Shown: positions 36,877 through 63,376 of the stretch, in pieces
Position numbering within the stretch: position 1 is the first letter of the stretch
Layout: each line of letters opens with the position of its first letter
Assembly (NCBI GenBank): GCA_963664705.1
Contig: OY761556.1
Span: 3,808,001 to 3,872,000, forward strand
Source: Acidobacteriota bacterium
GTDB lineage: Bacteria; Acidobacteriota; UBA6911
DNA: 64,000 nt
Direction: 5' to 3'
Notes under the pieces: generated by a model
Told to the model about the DNA's origin: nothing
Databases searched by the model: none
The model's input: only the letters and a program-made list of their open reading frames with translations
Made by a program: the position numbers and the translations under genes

Positions 36877-38052
36877 TCACTTTTTATGGACAAGGGCGGC
36901 ACGGGTAATGGCTTTGCCGCCAAAGCGCTGGGTAATGCTATCCATGGCTGATGCCAGCTTCTGGTTTTTCGGCGAGGGTTGATCCAACAACGACATCTGC
37001 TTCCCAATGGTCTCAACTTCGAGGTTGCTGCTGTATATACCAATCAGCCGAACCAGCAATCCTTCACGCCAAAGGCTTTGTAAAAGCTTGTCTGCAACCG
37101 GAAAAATTTCCTCTGCCGTATTCACCGAAGGGTTCAGGGTGATCCGCCGGGTGAAGGTCGAGAAGTCCGCCTCCCGGAATTTGACCGTAATTGTCCGGGC
37201 CCGCGTTTGGTTGGCCCGAAGCCGTTGGGCTACTTTTTCAGACAATGCAAGAAGAGTGGCATGAAGCAAACCGGCATCCGATGTGTCCTTGTCGAAAGTG
37301 ATCTCATGGCCAATTGATTTGAATCCTTCCGCAGAGACCACCGGCCGGTCGTCTATCCCGTTTGCAAGCTGCCACAAGTGGGCTCCCGTTTTTCCCAGGC
37401 GAACGGCAAGCTCACTATGGGATAAATCCGCGATTTGTCCGATCCGCTGCAACCCCGCTCGCTTCAGATCCTCTTCGGTCTTGGGTCCCACGCCCCAAAG
37501 CCGGCGTATGGGAAGCGGCGACAGGAATTCCTTCTCCCCTCCCGGTCTCACGATAACAAGTCCGTCCGGTTTCTCGAGATCAGATGCGACTTTTGCAATG
37601 AATTTGCTGGCGGCAACTCCAACAGAGGCCGTCAGCCCCAGTTCATGCCCGATCCTGGTTTTGATCTTCCTGGCAATCGTGGGTCCATCGCCAAAGAGCT
37701 TCTCGCTCCCTGTCACGTCCAGGAAAGCCTCATCAACGCTGACTTGCTCAATCAGGTCGGTAAAGTCGCCGAAAATATCCATGATGAGCCCGGAAACCCG
37801 TGCATACTTCTCCATATCCGGCCGAACATAAATTCCTTGCGGGCAGAGTTTCCATGCTTTGGATATAGGCTGCGCGGAGTGCACTCCGAATTTGCGCGCT
37901 TCGTAGGAACAGGTCGCGACAATTCCCCGGCCTTTTCCTTCTTTGGGATCGGATCCGACAATGACCGGCCTGCCCCGTAACTCGGGTCGATCGCGCTGCT
38001 CAACCGATGCATAAAATGCATCCATATCCACATGCAGAATGGTCCGGTTCAT
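36877..38052 (-). CDS. dinB: DNA polymerase IV (intact catalytic motifs)
   Basis: HVDMDAFYASVE, SYEAR, SVDEAFLD, KPDG, clamp motif QMSLL. Confidence 0.95.
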   Translation of the reverse strand: MNRTILHVDMDAFYASVEQRDRPELRGRPVIVGSDPKEGKGRGIVATCSYEARKFGVHSAQPISKAWKLCPQGIYVRPDMEKYARVSGLIMDIFGDFTDLIEQVSVDEAFLDVTGSEKLFGDGPTIARKIKTRIGHELGLTASVGVAASKFIAKVASDLEKPDGLVIVRPGGEKEFLSPLPIRRLWGVGPKTEEDLKRAGLQRIGQIADLSHSELAVRLGKTGAHLWQLANGIDDRPVVSAEGFKSIGHEITFDKDTSDAGLLHATLLALSEKVAQRLRANQTRARTITVKFREADFSTFTRRITLNPSVNTAEEIFPVADKLLQSLWREGLLVRLIGIYSSNLEVETIGKQMSLLDQPSPKNQKLASAMDSITQRFGGKAITRAALVHKK

Positions 38053-58312: not shown

Positions 58313-61288
58313 CTAAATCAGCCGGACGGAATCAACAGTCAGGGTACAAACTCCGAATTCCTCGCCAACTACACCGGTCAGCACATAAGGCCGGGAACGG
58401 TTCAAAATGTGACAAAACCGCGCATAGGCCTTTGGAAAAAAAACGGTCTCGTACAACGCCGTCGTATCTTCAAAACTGATAAATTCCATCGGTTCATCAT
58501 CCTTTGTCGTAACCAGTTTTCCCGTCACCCACCAACCGATGGTCGTGACATGCTTTCCGACATACCGGCAAAGATCTTTGCCTCTGACATATCTCATCCT
58601 CGAGAGTTGCTGGGAGTAGAGCGACAGCGGATGCCGGCTGATAAGGAAATCCAGCGTCTCCAGTTCATGTTCTAAAATGGTTCGCGGGCTGTACTGCGGA
58701 ACCCGAGGCGGAACCACCTGCGGCATATCGTGAAATAGAGACCGGGTCACCGCACGGCGCGATATCCGTGTTTCATGCCACGACAGTGCCTGCCAGATCA
58801 TCGCCGGCCGCGTCGCCCCCTGGGCAATGCGGTCAAAAGCGCCTGCCTTGATCAGAACCTTTACGTCGGAAATATCGATATCCACGCGACAGAGAAAATC
58901 CTCGAGCGAACGGAAGGGGCTTTTGCCGCGCGCCGCCAACACCGCCTGGAGTGCACTTTCGCGAAGACCTTTGATCTGCATGAGCCCGACCCGTACGGTC
59001 CGCCCCTGTCCCCAGTATGCTTTGCGGCTCTCGTTGATATCGGGAAGAAGCACCTGCAATCCCATGCGACGGGATTCGGACACATACGCAAAAGAAGAAT
59101 AGTATCCACCCTGGTTCGTCAGAACAGCCGCAATGAACTCCGCCGGATAGTGCGCGCGCAGATACCCGGATTTGTAGGACACCAGCGCATAGGAAGCAGA
59201 GTGCGGCTTGCAGAACGAATATCCGGAAAAACTCATGATCATTTCCCAGACTTCTTCAACGATATTCCGCGGAACTCCACGCTCAACCGCCCCTGCAAAA
59301 AACATCTCCCGGTAATCTTCCAGTTTCCTGCCGGCCCGTTTCTTGGAAAGGATCTTTCGAAGCAGATCCGCATTGGACGCATCGAATCCGGCCATTGCCA
59401 TTGCAATCCTGGAAACATCCTCCTGGTACACCATGATCCCGTACGTCTCCCGCAGCACTTCATCCAGGATGGAATGCAGCGGCTCATAACTGCCTCCCCT
59501 CAACCGGCGCACGTATTCACGAATGTACTTGTTGGCAGCGGGGCGTATGATCGAACTGTGAATCACAAGGTGATCGAAATCTCCCGTCCCGCACTTCTGC
59601 TGGAGCTGGCGCATGGCGGGAGATTCTGTGTAAAACACTCCGATTGTATCCCCCCGGCGAAACAGGTCCTGGGTTTTGGCATCCGTAGTCGGGTCCCATA
59701 GATCGTAGTCGATTTCGACACCGTGGTTCTCTTTAACGGCGGCCAAAGCATCCCGAATGACCGCGAGCGACCGGTTTCCGAGCAGATCGATCTTGATCAG
59801 ACCGGCGTCTTCCGCCTGGTCCTTTTCCCATTGAATGATCGGAACCCCTTTCGGTGCCGGCTGCACCGGGACATACCGATCAATTCTGTCGGGTACAACC
59901 ACAATGCCGCCACAATGAACCGACATGTAGCGCGGAAATCCTTTCAGCCTGCCGGCGAGACGAATGATTTCGGGCCAGGGAGCTTTCAACTCCATGTCTT
60001 TGTAAACGGGTTGGTGATCGATCATGTCCTGCAGGTGAGACAGCGACCAGTAATACCCCATGCGTTGCGTGACCGCTTTGATCTCCTGCTCCGGCAATCC
60101 GTACACTTTCGCGATCTCCCGCGTGGCCGCACGGGGGCGAAACCCGACATGGTTCGAAATCATTGCGGCTCGCGCCGCACCATATTTCTGAAAAACATAA
60201 TCGAAGACGGCATCTCTCTCGTCCCAGGGGAAATCGATGTCGATGTCGGGTGGATCCGAGCGCCCTTCGTTCAGGAAACGCTCGAAGAAGAGATTGTGGG
60301 TCACCGGCTCCACATGCGTGATCCCAAGACAATAGGCAACGAGGCTCGCAGCGGCGGACCCCCGGCCGCACGTCCGATTTGACTGCCGCACAATATCCCG
60401 TACCACCAGGAAGTAAGTGGCAAAGCCCTTATCTTTGATAATCTTCAATTCGTGATCGAGGCGCTTCAGCACGGAATCCGACAGCTCGCCATACCTCCGC
60501 TCCGCCCCTCGATAACACTCTTCTTTCAGGTGCTCAAAAGTATCCGATTCCGGACTGTCAAAGGACGGAAACACAAAGGCACCAATTCCGAGATCCGAAG
60601 AACAATCCGCGGCAATGCGCTCTGTATTTTCCAAAGCCCTGGTGAGGTGTGGATACCGGCGAACCATGTCGGATTCCGGCTTGAGCCAGCTGTCCATTCG
60701 CGCAAGCTCATTGGGCGGGATTCGCGACAACGATGTATTCAGATCAATGGCGCGCAGAAGCCGATGCAGTTCAAAATCCGCTGCATCCACAAAATAGACA
60801 TCATTGGTCGCAACCGGAGGGATCCCGGTTTCGCGGGAAAATTTGATCAGCGGCGCTTCAATCGCAGGGTTGCTTAATTCTACAAAAAGCTGCGAAGTAC
60901 CATCCTGTTTCCCAAGCGACTGCAGGAGCGGAATCTGATCGCTGAGTACAATCAGATGTTCCCTGTTCTCTTTCAGCATCCGGCTCAGACAAAAATTGGA
61001 ATCAAACTGACACCGGGAAATGATGCGGCAAAGCGTTTCATAGCCGCTCCGGTTCCGCACCAGCAGCGTCGCATGCTCCTGGGTTGTCCGCAACTCCGCA
61101 CCGACAATCGGGCGCAAACCGCGCTCCGCGGCCTGCTGGAGAAACCAGATCAGTCCGTACACACCGTTGATGTCGGTCAACGCCATCGATGACATGCCGC
61201 GCGCTAAAACGGCATCCACGAGTTCCTCAATTCTGCCGGCTCCGCGGCAGAATGAAAAATTGGAGTGTACGTGAAGGTGTGTGAACAT
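58313..61288 (-). CDS. dnaE2: Second DNA polymerase III alpha (DnaE2-like, presumed error-prone)
   Basis: HLHVHS PHP domain, GRGSAA, PPDIDIDF, KIDLLG, FSGYSFCKPH, OB fold; ATG at 61288; located beside a Y-family gene. Confidence 0.85.
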   Translation of the reverse strand: MFTHLHVHSNFSFCRGAGRIEELVDAVLARGMSSMALTDINGVYGLIWFLQQAAERGLRPIVGAELRTTQEHATLLVRNRSGYETLCRIISRCQFDSNFCLSRMLKENREHLIVLSDQIPLLQSLGKQDGTSQLFVELSNPAIEAPLIKFSRETGIPPVATNDVYFVDAADFELHRLLRAIDLNTSLSRIPPNELARMDSWLKPESDMVRRYPHLTRALENTERIAADCSSDLGIGAFVFPSFDSPESDTFEHLKEECYRGAERRYGELSDSVLKRLDHELKIIKDKGFATYFLVVRDIVRQSNRTCGRGSAAASLVAYCLGITHVEPVTHNLFFERFLNEGRSDPPDIDIDFPWDERDAVFDYVFQKYGAARAAMISNHVGFRPRAATREIAKVYGLPEQEIKAVTQRMGYYWSLSHLQDMIDHQPVYKDMELKAPWPEIIRLAGRLKGFPRYMSVHCGGIVVVPDRIDRYVPVQPAPKGVPIIQWEKDQAEDAGLIKIDLLGNRSLAVIRDALAAVKENHGVEIDYDLWDPTTDAKTQDLFRRGDTIGVFYTESPAMRQLQQKCGTGDFDHLVIHSSIIRPAANKYIREYVRRLRGGSYEPLHSILDEVLRETYGIMVYQEDVSRIAMAMAGFDASNADLLRKILSKKRAGRKLEDYREMFFAGAVERGVPRNIVEEVWEMIMSFSGYSFCKPHSASYALVSYKSGYLRAHYPAEFIAAVLTNQGGYYSSFAYVSESRRMGLQVLLPDINESRKAYWGQGRTVRVGLMQIKGLRESALQAVLAARGKSPFRSLEDFLCRVDIDISDVKVLIKAGAFDRIAQGATRPAMIWQALSWHETRISRRAVTRSLFHDMPQVVPPRVPQYSPRTILEHELETLDFLISRHPLSLYSQQLSRMRYVRGKDLCRYVGKHVTTIGWWVTGKLVTTKDDEPMEFISFEDTTALYETVFFPKAYARFCHILNRSRPYVLTGVVGEEFGVCTLTVDSVRLI

Positions 61289-61325
61289 AGCCGTTAGTGG
61301 GCGGTGAGCAGTAGGCAGTGACGCA

Positions 61326-62498
61326 TCAGACCGTATTGAGACCCACGGCCGACTGCCGACTGATGACCGCCTTGCCAAAACGTTGACGTAAACTATCCAA
61401 CGCCGATTCCAATTTCGACTGGCGGACCGGTTTCGGATCCGCAAACAGTTCCAGTTGAATCGACCCGGCGGAAAGATCCGTCAGACGAAGGTGTATGCGT
61501 CGCACCCGTGTACGCCGCTGAAGAACTCGATCCAACCCCGTAAGCGCATGAGTATAAAGCCCGGCAGAAGACTGTATCGGTGGGCTCAGCTTGAACTTGT
61601 TTCCGTCGTCCCGGTAATCCGCATACAGAACACCCAACTCCAATTGTCCGGCTCGCTGTTTTCTTTCACGAAGCCGTTCCCCGGCTTCCTCACACAAGTC
61701 GAACAGCACACGCCGCAGCAAGTCGTAGTCATTGCTGTCTTCCGGGAGCACCCGTTCCACGTCCAGGGCCGGAATCGTCCGCAAAGGATTTACCGGTGTG
61801 CTGTCAATTCCCAGGGCACGCTGGTGCAGCACAATCCCAAACCGCCCGAAAGCCAGCGAGAGGTGCGCCGGATCCATCGCCGCAATATCGTGGATAAGGC
61901 AAATGTTGAGATCCTTCAATTGAACTTCGGTCCGGGTTCCAATGCCAGGAAGAAACCGTACCGGCAAAGGGGAAAGAAACGACGACTCATCTCCAGGCGG
62001 AACATCCTGCAGACCGGCCGGGCGCTCGACAACTTCCGACGCGATTCTGCTGACCATCTTATTGGATGCAACTCCAAGTGAACTGTCCAATCGCAGCCGT
62101 TGCCGGATCTCCTTCTGGGCTTTCCATGCCGTATCGCGGGGCGGTCCGAAAAGTCTCCCGGTTCCCGTGATATCTAGATACGCATGCCCATGGCCGGACG
62201 GTTCGAGCACAGGAGAAAAGCTCTCCAGTACGCGAAAAATCGCACGGGATGCCCTCAAATAGAGAGACTCATTCGGGGGAAGCACAATAGCGCTTCTGCA
62301 ATAACGCATCGCTTTTGCCAGCACCATCCCTTTGCGGACGCCCGCCTTCCATGCTTCACCCGAAAGCGCTGTTACAACGGAACGGGAGGCCCCCAAAGGC
62401 GACACGATCACCGGCTTCCCGCGCAGTTCTGGATGAACTACCCGCTCTACGGCCACAGGAAAACTGTTTACCGTCAGATAGATGATCTCTCGTTCCAT
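61326..62498 (-). CDS. Catalytically degenerate Y-family polymerase (ImuB-like) with a clamp motif
   Basis: YLTVNSF replaces HVDMDAF; SGHGHAYLD replaces SVDEAFLD; QLELF near the C-terminus. Confidence 0.8.
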   Translation of the reverse strand: MEREIIYLTVNSFPVAVERVVHPELRGKPVIVSPLGASRSVVTALSGEAWKAGVRKGMVLAKAMRYCRSAIVLPPNESLYLRASRAIFRVLESFSPVLEPSGHGHAYLDITGTGRLFGPPRDTAWKAQKEIRQRLRLDSSLGVASNKMVSRIASEVVERPAGLQDVPPGDESSFLSPLPVRFLPGIGTRTEVQLKDLNICLIHDIAAMDPAHLSLAFGRFGIVLHQRALGIDSTPVNPLRTIPALDVERVLPEDSNDYDLLRRVLFDLCEEAGERLRERKQRAGQLELGVLYADYRDDGNKFKLSPPIQSSAGLYTHALTGLDRVLQRRTRVRRIHLRLTDLSAGSIQLELFADPKPVRQSKLESALDSLRQRFGKAVISRQSAVGLNTV

Positions 62499-62502
62499 GA
62501 TT

Positions 62503-62582
62503 TCAATTTACGATTTACGATTGACGAATGACGATTGAAAAGCGACGTGTCTTGCTCCATTCGTCAATCGTAAATCGTAAAT
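62503..62582. repeat. Heptamer inverted array (ATTTACG)n...(CGTAAAT)n within the DUF72 3' end
   Basis: A related degenerate copy lies at 29636-29704. Confidence 0.65.
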
Positions 62583-63341
62583 CCCCAGTTCTTCCAGCAG
62601 CATGCGGGCATTGATCACCGCTTGGCCCCTCCAGGGATTATTCATAAAGACCAGGACCCGTTCACACTCCGCTTCCAGCCGCCGGATCTCCGGCACCACG
62701 GCGGCAAGTTCCGCCCGGCTGTACAGGTAATCGTGCTGGGCCGATCCATCCCCTTTCAGCCACCTGGACTGATTGCGGCCCTGGAAGCGGATATACGCCA
62801 TTCCTGCCGTAGCACAGTAGAAGGTCTTTTCCGTCAGGTTGGCCCCCCCATCCACACACGCAAGCATCACGCGGGCAGAAGCCAGATGTTTTGCCGCTCT
62901 GGACGAATTCCAGTCGGGACAGCCGAATTCGGCAATCAGAGGCACCCCTTCCAGTAAATCCCGGAGCCGACACACCCGGTCGAAGTTGTCCCGAATGAAA
63001 TCAAATCCAGGCGGAAACTGGGCCAGAACACCCGACACCTGCCCGGACTCCCTCAGGGGCCATATGGCACTGCAGAAACGCCGGGCCAACTCTACGTCGG
63101 CCACAGGCTCCTGAGATAACCGGGCAGGAAGGCGGAGCACAAATTGCACCGCCCCGCGCGTCTCATCCGCAATCTGCTGGACAGCGGAAACCTCGGGAAT
63201 CCGGAAGTATGTGAATCCGATCTCGCAGCAATTGAAATGCCGACCGTAATACCGCAGCCAGAAGTCCGGATTCAAATTCCTCGGATAAAAAACCGATACC
63301 CAATCTCGATATTGAAAGCCGCTTGTTCCCACCAGAATCAT
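62508..63341 (-). CDS. DUF72 (YecE-like) TIM-barrel protein
   Basis: ILVGTSGFQY.DW..FYP, LAQFPP.F, YIRFQGRN, DYLYS..EL, FMNN. Confidence 0.8.
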   Translation of the reverse strand: MILVGTSGFQYRDWVSVFYPRNLNPDFWLRYYGRHFNCCEIGFTYFRIPEVSAVQQIADETRGAVQFVLRLPARLSQEPVADVELARRFCSAIWPLRESGQVSGVLAQFPPGFDFIRDNFDRVCRLRDLLEGVPLIAEFGCPDWNSSRAAKHLASARVMLACVDGGANLTEKTFYCATAGMAYIRFQGRNQSRWLKGDGSAQHDYLYSRAELAAVVPEIRRLEAECERVLVFMNNPWRGQAVINARMLLEELGIYDLRLTNGARHVAFQSSFVNRKS

Positions 63342-63376
63342 GCGGCCAAGATAGGTGAAAATTAGGTGAAAATCAA
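63342..63376 (-). promoter_or_regulatory. Promoter TTGATT-17-TATCTT, likely leaderless, with a TTTTCACCTA tandem repeat in the spacer
   Basis: -35 at 63371-63376, -10 at 63348-63353, ATG 6 nt further on; plus-strand TAGGTGAAAA at 63352-63361 and 63363-63372. Confidence 0.6.

Follow-up and report, generated by a model that had tools for sequence, protein, structure and literature searches.

A DUF72 protein with a remodelled pocket at the head of a likely LexA-repressed, imuA-less polymerase operon in an Acidobacteriota bacterium

Introduction

DUF72 is a large protein family for which structures have been solved but, to our knowledge, no function has been demonstrated. The 64,000-nucleotide stretch of Acidobacteriota DNA analysed here (the window) contains a DUF72 gene at the head of a cassette that also encodes an inactive Y-family polymerase and DnaE2, which raises the question of what a DUF72 protein contributes to such a cassette. 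The original prediction was that it occupies the position of ImuA in a distinct translesion system. On the evidence presented below, the locus is probably a LexA-repressed operon in which DnaE2 is the polymerase, the inactive Y protein is a scaffold that recruits RecA, and DUF72 is an optional, non-catalytic helper that binds DNA or lesions.

The polymerase genes and their closest relatives

The three genes are co-oriented on the minus strand and tightly packed, as had been described: the DUF72 gene (62508–63341; 277 aa; PF01904, E 8e-40) is followed after 9 bp by the Y-family gene (61326–62498; 390 aa; IMS and IMS_C domains), hereafter iPolY, and after a further 37 bp by dnaE2 (58313–61288; 991 aa counted from the ATG at 61288). 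A TTG start for dnaE2 at 61444 was dropped, because that longer frame runs into the Y gene and alignments of homologues begin at the Met at 61288.

Aligned end to end with the intact DinB encoded at 36877–38052 (34% identity), iPolY has T/G/H at the catalytic D/D/E positions (YLTVN versus HVDMD and GHGHA versus SVDEA). The clamp motif QLELF is present at residues 348–352, upholding the description of a DinB-sized Y-family protein that has lost its catalytic acids and kept its clamp motif. The DDE triad was likewise found in 0 of 86 aligned cassette PolYs, and an ImuB-C domain was not found in the 390-aa protein. Its C-terminus carries a RecA-NT-like motif at approximately residues 359–378, some 12 residues before the end of the protein. 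In HHalign comparisons, the iPolY tail profile matched the RecA N-terminus profile with 92.5% probability (six control segments, ≤2%), and pairwise BLASTP between the iPolY tail and the RecA N-terminus gave no match. A profile built solely from the source organism's own family reached 47–49% (E ~2e-4), compared with 84% for the other iPolYs; the terminal Gly of the motif is present in 21–30% of own-family sequences versus 90% of other iPolYs, and the helix core is near-invariant in the family. The protein is best described as gbDinB2-like and PolY-core sized, a label assigned by features rather than by reference sequence, from the group named in Timinskas & Venclovas 2019 (PMC6511836). The RecA-NT-like motif suggests that RecA, which is encoded elsewhere, likely fills the ImuA role rather than DUF72.

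DnaE2 comprises PHP, Pol3, HhH and predicted OB domains, and was found to have no CTD and no SRD or HDF tail. The Pol3 acids D348, D350 and D501 are retained, so that the original description of a polymerase with its catalytic motif and without an SRDF-type tail is accurate. The metal site of the PHP domain is disrupted (HHRIEH-DY versus HHDHEHCDH in the 1153-aa DnaE1 of the same genome). In the DnaE2 tree, the protein groups with iPolY-linked DnaE2s and apart from the imuA-linked DnaE2s of its class relatives (support 1.0); of the nine imuA-linked DnaE2s used for comparison, eight have SHDF or SRDF at the C-terminus. By sequence, it can be assigned to the non-A (B-like) type of DnaE2. The NCBIfam models score slightly higher for DnaE1 (702 bits versus 622 bits for the DnaE2 model, both under cut-off), and this identity was rejected given the separate DnaE1, which has an intact PHP domain and a CTD.

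The cassette was originally described as lacking imuA, and no copy was found in the whole genome (G000; 6.9 Mb, single contig, 98% complete), where a PF00154 search returned only recA, present once, above cut-off; as a positive control, 10 of 40 relatives yielded ImuA-like genes in the same search. The core without imuA is not in itself new, as it fits the DnaE2B-iPolY-RecA type, a putative mutasome predicted from sequence and listed among 11 types (Timinskas et al., NAR 2026, PMC12926913, section 19), and the claim of a distinct translesion system therefore falls away. Both have an inactive DinB-sized PolY with clamp and RecA-NT motifs, no ImuB-C domain and an adjacent DnaE2, in genomes with RecA and without detected imuA or imuB, and both show a wide phyletic spread that is rich in deltaproteobacteria. 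In contrast to the published type, the first gene of the window operon encodes a DUF72 protein with a remodelled pocket, the operon is not linked to lexA, and its candidate operator does not appear in those papers; DUF72 is not mentioned in the main text of PMC12926913 or PMC6511836. The canonical ImuA-ImuB-DnaE2A systems of M. tuberculosis, Caulobacter and Pseudomonas likewise combine an inactive Y-family scaffold and an additional DnaE within one damage operon, and the canonical cassettes of class relatives also sit behind the candidate TTCACC operator described below. However, the window operon lacks ImuA, ImuB-C and the SRDF/SHDF tail, and its DnaE2 belongs to a separate clade.

A promoter with a candidate LexA operator

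A leaderless sigma-70-type promoter is predicted from the sequence upstream of the DUF72 gene (63348–63376, minus strand), with a −35 element TTGATT (63376–63371), a 17-bp spacer, a −10 element TATCTT (63353–63348) and the ATG 6 nt further. Of 17 upstream regions from the same genus, 16 retain this layout against diverging surrounding DNA. The spacer between the −35 and −10 elements is filled by a candidate LexA operator, TTCACC-N5-TTCACC (63353–63371, minus strand), a direct repeat with an 11-bp period. With an operator matrix trained on lexA promoters from 29 other genomes, this site ranked fourth in the 6.9 Mb genome (26.8 bits), together with two lexA sites and an mrfA site; the highest match in the genome falls within an ORF. 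The TTCACC repeat was found upstream of lexA in the source genome and the 29 other genomes, upstream of mrfA in all 20 own-genus genomes with upstream DNA, and upstream of imuA-imuB-dnaE2 in 10 of 11 loci of relatives, such that lexA, mrfA-mrfB and the relatives' imuA cassettes have the candidate operator in common. The TTCACC unit occurs in a class of Acidobacteriota, and a TACACC variant was found in two Marinimicrobia loci (L092 and L095). One operator ahead of both lexA and damage genes is a feature of a LexA regulon, making this a candidate site at which LexA binding is predicted, and the three genes are likely to form a LexA-repressed, DNA-damage-inducible operon for an error-prone polymerase. 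The operator was absent from recA in 29 of 30 genomes (present in 1 of 30) and was not found at dinB or the second lexA of the source genome, an uncommon pattern among SOS regulons. Neither the promoter operator nor the RecA-NT motif of the Y protein featured in the original prediction.

Direct-repeat LexA boxes with T-rich spacers have precedents in the Balneolaeota (TTACACATATTTTWTACATA, EMSA-tested; PMC7739468) and the Alphaproteobacteria (GTTC-N7-GTTC; PMC8565304). These boxes resemble the TTCACC site in preceding lexA, a helicase gene and genes for translesion polymerases, but differ in their repeat unit and in that recA mostly lacks the TTCACC site, and the resemblance is one of sequence only. 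In the literature searched, which mostly excluded subscription papers, no description of a TTCACC operator, no report tying YecE to DNA damage and LexA, and no paper on COG1801 were found. The candidate operator outlines a small SOS regulon in this class of Acidobacteriota, comprising lexA, the translesion cassette and mrfA-mrfB, mostly without recA.

Linkage of DUF72 to the cassette

Genomes were scanned with DnaE2, because an alignment of 81 iPolY sequences showed too much divergence for use as a seed. The resulting 80 loci, the best from 571 relatives, derive mainly from related Desulfobacterota, so that the following counts are not independent. Among these best 80 of 571, 65 loci were informative, of which 64 have an inactive PolY immediately upstream of this DnaE2 type, 52 contain a full DUF72 (38 of them headed by lexA), 50 have DUF72 in first position and 11 have no DUF72, two of these 11 with <1 kb of downstream DNA; a RecA-like ORF was found in 0 of the 80. 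Within the source organism's family, DUF72 adjoins the iPolY cassette in 34 of the 39 genomes that have this iPolY, and the remodelled DUF72 is followed by polymerase genes in all 36 copies with downstream DNA (two copies at contig edges were not counted). The expected linkage is thus conserved across phyla and far beyond chance, with a candidate LexA operator common to other damage genes.

In two relatives (G020 and G331), the operon is complete except for a clean deletion of DUF72. Elsewhere, DUF72 lies downstream of dnaE2 in L080 and L095, and follows a complete imuA-imuB-dnaE2 cassette in G034, where the copy carries an internal deletion; G009, from the same genus as the source organism, has a canonical imuA cassette and no copy of this iPolY. 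In a quick tree of DUF72, in which long branches meet around L080, one branch (SH-aLRT 88) has 63 of the 64 operon DUF72s on the same side. The L095 copy belongs to the same broad group as the other operon DUF72s, and the L080 copy is provisionally placed in another subfamily, suggesting a separate recruitment. The linkage of DUF72 is therefore wide but optional, since it has been cleanly lost in G020 and G331.

A TIM barrel with a replaced pocket

The DUF72 protein (YecE/TM1631-like) matches PF01904 at 137.6 bits (cut-off, 25.3), with no other Pfam match, and 1vpq by sequence at E 4e-33. Its AF2 model (pLDDT 89.4; ~51 for residues 261–277) superposes on 1vpq with Z 28.5 and rmsd 2.4 over 247 of ~256 ordered residues, and the Foldseek match has E 2.8e-20, so that the model describes a TIM barrel across the whole domain. 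PF01904 and this superposition were found in place of a RecA-family sequence or fold; no RecA-fold entry occurs among the 50 matches listed by the wide fold search or among those listed by Foldseek, which alone is no proof. The fold gives no function, because the matches to EndoIV and UVDE (Z 12–13.5) are level with those to sugar isomerases.

The pocket residues considered here come from a computational proposal that TM1631 is a lesion endonuclease, which places five residues at the phosphate (N44, K72, Q114, R145 and R191; PMC3828134). Relative to this set, the window protein has lost N44 and R145 and carries Arg in place of K72, and H146 and H193 are also replaced; in TM1631 numbering, the changes are N44 to G, K72 to R, R145 to G, H146 to C, DxP to DGG and H193 to Q. 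The residues E40, Q108, E138, D164, R185, R189 and N235 (window numbering) are retained. The replacement is family-wide, with the conserved set ExN, K, EFRH, DxP and RxHGR replaced in 22 family copies and 120 close homologues. N44 and H193 are each retained in 0/22 family copies and 0/120 close homologues and R145 in 0/22 family copies, and all three in 44/44 other operon copies; among solo copies, N44 and R145 are retained in 30/30 and H193 in 19/30. This replacement is newly found, and all other DUF72s examined keep N44 and R145. Across the same 22 copies and 120 homologues, E40, E138, D164, R185, R189, Y205, Y207 and N235 are near-invariant and the replacement residues G140, C141 and Q187 are near-fixed. 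Two further DUF72 paralogues in the source genome have largely intact family motifs. The lost residues lower the case for the same activity, not for DUF72 family membership, and the window protein shares its fold, family and a damage-gene neighbourhood with TM1631 and EF0366 (PDB 1VPQ, 1VPY, 1ZTV). DUF72s are also enriched near polB2 (PMC11791011), whereas the linked polymerase here is DnaE2.

The stem branch of the remodelled group is long for DUF72 (2.23) compared with iPolY (0.48) and DnaE2 residues 1–330 (0.38), a comparison in which the sister taxa differ between genes. Median dN/dS values are similar among the three (0.18, 0.20 and 0.15, respectively), and the remodelled DUF72 thus combines a long stem with purifying selection like that on its neighbour genes.

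Possible roles of DUF72

The remodelled barrel could be an enzyme with changed specificity, acting on another lesion or a damaged nucleotide and co-induced with the polymerases without contacting them. This is on balance unlikely. It would explain why charged and new pocket residues are near-fixed in the 22 copies and 120 homologues, and DUF72s near polB2 (PMC11791011), after the canonical cassette of G034 and, provisionally from another subfamily, in L080 form a pattern that fits a stand-alone damage function. However, replacement of Asn, Arg and His by Gly, Gly and Gln would be typical of lost catalysis, two paralogues keep the motifs largely intact, and the remodelled copy is not seen away from polymerase genes. 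Rather unlikely, too, is a pseudo-enzyme that in this family serves as a subunit of the DnaE2B-iPolY(-RecA) mutasome under the candidate LexA operator, binding the lesion or primer end and docking on iPolY or the PHP domain of DnaE2; if true, the 11 mutasome types listed in 2026 would be joined by another, and a DUF72 protein would have a defined role for the first time. The PHP surface proposed for docking is the one used by ImuB-C in canonical systems.

The originally predicted role, that of a required subunit replacing ImuA in a distinct three-protein mutasome, appears improbable. DUF72 does come first in 50 of 65 informative loci (among the best 80 of 571), its remodelled pocket parallels ImuA as a dead RecA, and the last Gly of the iPolY RecA-NT motif has drifted, but the protein is a TIM barrel, the RecA-NT motif lies on iPolY with its helix core near-invariant in the family, DUF72 lies downstream in L080 and L095, and intact iPolY-dnaE2 operons occur without it (G020, G331 and 11 of 65 other loci), while in G034 it stands alongside imuA, albeit as an internally deleted copy. 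Least probable of all is a passenger that came to lie ahead of an ancestral lexA-iPolY-dnaE2 operon and was co-inherited without a damage role. The position of 63 of 64 operon DUF72s on the same side of one branch (SH-aLRT 88) means that the linkage could be mostly one inheritance, and DUF72 has been lost repeatedly; against this, it is under purifying selection equal to that on its neighbours, has been kept after a move downstream (L095) and, provisionally, recruited from another subfamily (L080), and is independently enriched near polB2 (PMC11791011).

For the preferred reading, an optional non-catalytic helper, a sequence of events can be proposed. As in known families, damage would lead to RecA-promoted cleavage of LexA and free the promoter; iPolY would act as a clamp-binding scaffold, with QLELF contacting the beta clamp and the RecA-NT tail contacting RecA; and DnaE2, without a working PHP proofreader, would synthesise past the lesion. 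More tentatively, DUF72 may have entered such operons with its EndoIV/UVDE-like barrel still intact, as it is in the Desulfobacterota, after which its pocket might have changed in the family ancestor and the protein been kept for binding. The pocket remodelling lends some weight to the suggestion that DUF72 is a lesion- or DNA-binding partner, a hypothetical activity.

The imuA-less core was already predicted in print, and the new parts are the DUF72 remodelling and the candidate operator, the former making an uncharacterised family testable as a DNA-damage accessory. Operon DUF72s with intact pockets in the Desulfobacterota (carriers include Desulfogranum marinum and Desulfopila sp.), the family with remodelled pockets and the genomes with clean deletions together form a natural experiment, and comparison of these three states can distinguish between a catalytic and a binding role and indicates residues of interest.

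The 3′ end of the DUF72 gene is overlapped by a perfect inverted repeat with 25-bp arms (62506–62582, not strand-specific; predicted −38 kcal/mol), which ends ~8 nt ahead of the Y-gene start and codes for part of the variable, low-confidence C-terminal tail of DUF72. The genome contains 11 arm-like sequences with ≤2 mismatches.

Gene content of the cassette

Three genes lie tightly packed and co-oriented on the minus strand, DUF72 first (62508-63341), followed by a 390-aa Y-family protein (iPolY; 61326-62498) and a 991-aa DnaE2 (58313-61288), with gaps of 9 and 37 bp, and the triad described in the original prediction is thus confirmed. Alignment to the intact DinB at 36877 (34% identity) bore out the reading of the Y-family protein, in which T, G and H replace the three catalytic acids and QLELF is retained despite these losses. 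DnaE2 keeps its catalytic aspartates (D348, D350 and D501), has a disrupted PHP metal site and has neither a CTD nor an SRDF tail, as predicted for the latter. According to the available text of PMC3919608, about 77% of DnaE2s carry the SRDF motif, and DnaE2 has no CTD. In the window's 6.9-Mb genome, DnaE1 is encoded separately, tblastn recovers just two Y-family genes, and there are two further DUF72 genes and one recA. Its named close relatives belong to the Acidobacteriota. A RecA profile search found no ImuA-like gene in this genome and recovered such genes in 10 of 40 relatives as a positive control.

A perfect hairpin with 25-bp arms, built of 7-mer repeats, lies between DUF72 and iPolY (62506-62582); intergenic lengths in the operon differ widely across relatives, several of which carry comparable runs of short repeats upstream.

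Polymerase core and the role of RecA

The original prediction proposed a distinct translesion system, which was not borne out, as the core fits the already described, predicted DnaE2B-iPolY-RecA type (PMC12926913). The portion of that source available lists such systems for genomes without ImuA or ImuB, one of them having a gbDinB2-like iPolY and a wide phyletic spread; for the window's iPolY this label rests on features. The window DnaE2 clusters with other iPolY-linked DnaE2s, apart from nine imuA-linked DnaE2s of class relatives. According to a proposal in the available part of PMC6511836, a motif resembling the RecA N-terminus (RecA-NT) allows RecA to substitute for ImuA. The iPolY tail profile, built from 63 cassettes, matched that of the RecA N-terminus with 92.5% probability, versus 2% or less for six control segments. 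The match for the acidobacterial family of the window's genome (own family) alone was 47-49% (E about 2e-4), with the helix core nearly invariant and the last Gly mostly lost. The most probable reading, held with moderate confidence, is that the operon is an SOS-type translesion synthesis unit in which RecA would fill the ImuA role and DUF72 would be an optional accessory, acting by binding in the own family.

In one genome of the own genus that lacks this iPolY, a canonical imuA-imuB-dnaE2 cassette (L252; G009:C192) sits behind the candidate LexA operator that also precedes DUF72 (described below), which suggests that one type of cassette can take the place of the other. L263 (G437:C389) and L264 (G312:C6) each carry a second PolY-like gene, more divergent and scoring about 350 bits against the iPolY profile, with no dnaE2, DUF72 or operator in the available flanking DNA.

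DUF72 is a frequent but optional member

Cassettes were surveyed by a genome scan seeded with DnaE2, from which 15 of the best 80 loci were left out (upstream DNA <1.5 kb). Among the 65 loci counted from the best 80 of 571 relatives, inactive PolY lay upstream of dnaE2 in 64 and DUF72 ahead of PolY in 50, with lexA first in 38 of the latter; DUF72 followed dnaE2 in two, was fragmented in one and was absent from 11 (two with <1 kb of downstream DNA), while dnaE2 stood alone in one. No RecA-like ORF was found in any locus of these best 80 of 571. Nine of the 65 were own-family loci, five of these repeating loci already included in the analysis, and because the remainder were mostly from Desulfobacterota or deltaproteobacteria (Fibrobacterota, Marinimicrobia and unclassified lineages contributing single cases), the counts represent non-independent events. 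Within the own family, this iPolY occurs in 39 of 51 genomes and DUF72 is adjacent in 34 of the 39. Two genomes (G020, G331) have a clean DUF72 deletion that joins the promoter to iPolY and leaves dnaE2 intact, and the remaining three (G437, G016, G312) have iPolY near contig ends. The triad is complete but frameshifted in G430 and G448, DUF72 sits at a contig end in G021, and G030 has lexA-DUF72-iPolY with no dnaE2 after it. In G034, imuA-imuB-dnaE2 is followed by an internally deleted DUF72, of a different subfamily by motifs.

DUF72 is therefore a frequent yet optional cassette member that can coexist with ImuA. The original interpretation, partly supported overall, had placed DUF72 in the position of ImuA. 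Its common place ahead of PolY would suit a required ImuA-like subunit, but the clean deletions, the coexistence with imuA and the RecA-NT match count otherwise and make this role improbable.

Inserts of 1-2.4 kb interrupt three cassettes (L092:2738-3760, L126:1400-3780 and L124:2950-4980), separating iPolY either from the lexA or DUF72 before it or from the dnaE2 after it.

A remodelled DUF72 pocket

The predicted DUF72 model is a TIM barrel (pLDDT 89.4) that matches TM1631 with Z 28.5 (247 residues superposed at rmsd 2.4), the next structural families scoring Z 15.7 or less. Modelling described in the available part of PMC3828134 proposed that N44, K72, Q114, R145 and R191 of TM1631 bind DNA phosphate. 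The accessible text of PMC11791011 notes DUF72 near polB2 and likens it to UV-damage endonuclease, and that of PMC3765255 does not mention DUF72. At the aligned positions the window DUF72 reads G, R, Q, G and R, so that N44 and R145 are missing, K72 is R, and Q114 and R191 are unchanged; H146 is further replaced by C and H193 by Q. N44 is kept in 0/22 family copies and 0/120 close homologues versus 44/44 other operon copies and 30/30 solo copies, R145 in 0/22 family copies versus 44/44 and 30/30, and H193 in 0/22 and 0/120 versus 44/44 and 19/30. The replacement is thus family-wide, and a search of 401 genomes from the phylum recovered the remodelled form in the own family only (4 matches).

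Family copies form one clade, whose stem measures 2.05-2.23 changes per site; the corresponding stems of iPolY and of the N-terminal part of DnaE2 measure 0.48 and 0.38, sister taxa differing between trees. Median pairwise dN/dS over unsaturated pairs was 0.18, 0.20 and 0.15 for DUF72, iPolY and the DnaE2 N-terminal part (87, 110 and 115 of 190 pairs, respectively). Given the long stem and low dN/dS, the DUF72 history resembles an episode of rapid change and then a return to constraint. The pocket changes suggest that catalysis was lost; this loss is only inferred, since other charged residues are retained, and an enzyme of changed specificity is a less likely, though credible, alternative to an accessory that acts by binding. 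That DUF72 is a passenger, a reading its optional presence might invite, appears most doubtful beside its low dN/dS.

The two further DUF72 genes of the window's own genome are solo paralogues (G000:C1:4134009-4134920 and 4318085-4318804; L070, L071); one, with intact motifs and orthologues across the genus, lies after a SAM hydroxide adenosyltransferase gene, and a HIT-domain gene precedes the other.

A candidate LexA operator

In 16 of 17 own-genus DUF72 upstream regions, a -35 element, the direct repeat TTCACC-N5-TTCACC, a -10 element and an ATG 6-7 nt later are conserved, and the DNA flanking this promoter is unrelated among these sequences. Two inverted copies of the repeat occur in the lexA1 promoter of the window's genome (promoter and gene, G000:C1:815399-816049; L036/L038), and the repeat is also found in the lexA promoters of 29 other genomes, including eight that belong to other families of the class. 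A matrix trained solely on these 29 promoters, with sites chosen by the pattern seen beforehand, scored six sites of the window's genome at no less than 19 bits: two at lexA, one in the DUF72 promoter, one at the mrfA-mrfB start, a weaker one between envelope genes and one inside an ORF. In three shuffles, 0-2 sites per strand reached this score. The mrfA-mrfB site (G000:C1:314394-314412; L068) immediately precedes the start codon of a pair (314415-318009) encoding an mrfA-like DEAD/MZB helicase and an RNase_H_2 (mrfB-like) exonuclease. The candidate operator lies upstream of mrfA in all 20 own-genus genomes with upstream DNA and of canonical imuA cassettes at 10 of 11 loci. It precedes recA in just 1 of 30 genomes; a second lexA (G000:6493718-6494299; 40% identical) and recA of the window's genome are without it. 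LexA is predicted to bind this repeat, which resembles an EMSA-tested Balneolaeota direct repeat (PMC7739468, available text); no published account of the TTCACC motif was found in the literature searched.

The intact DinB (36877-38052), with a C-terminal clamp motif and a RecA-NT-like tail, has no candidate operator upstream; in several own-genus genomes, 12-35 kb separate it from the cassette. In Desulfobacterota and acidobacterial family f4 (L026, L027, L100-L151), the lexA-DUF72-iPolY-dnaE2 operons encode a LexA distinct from LexA1, with 37-38% identity to it in f4. Upstream of their lexA, repeats built on TTTACA and ATGTA..TACAT surround the -35 element and represent a second candidate operator.
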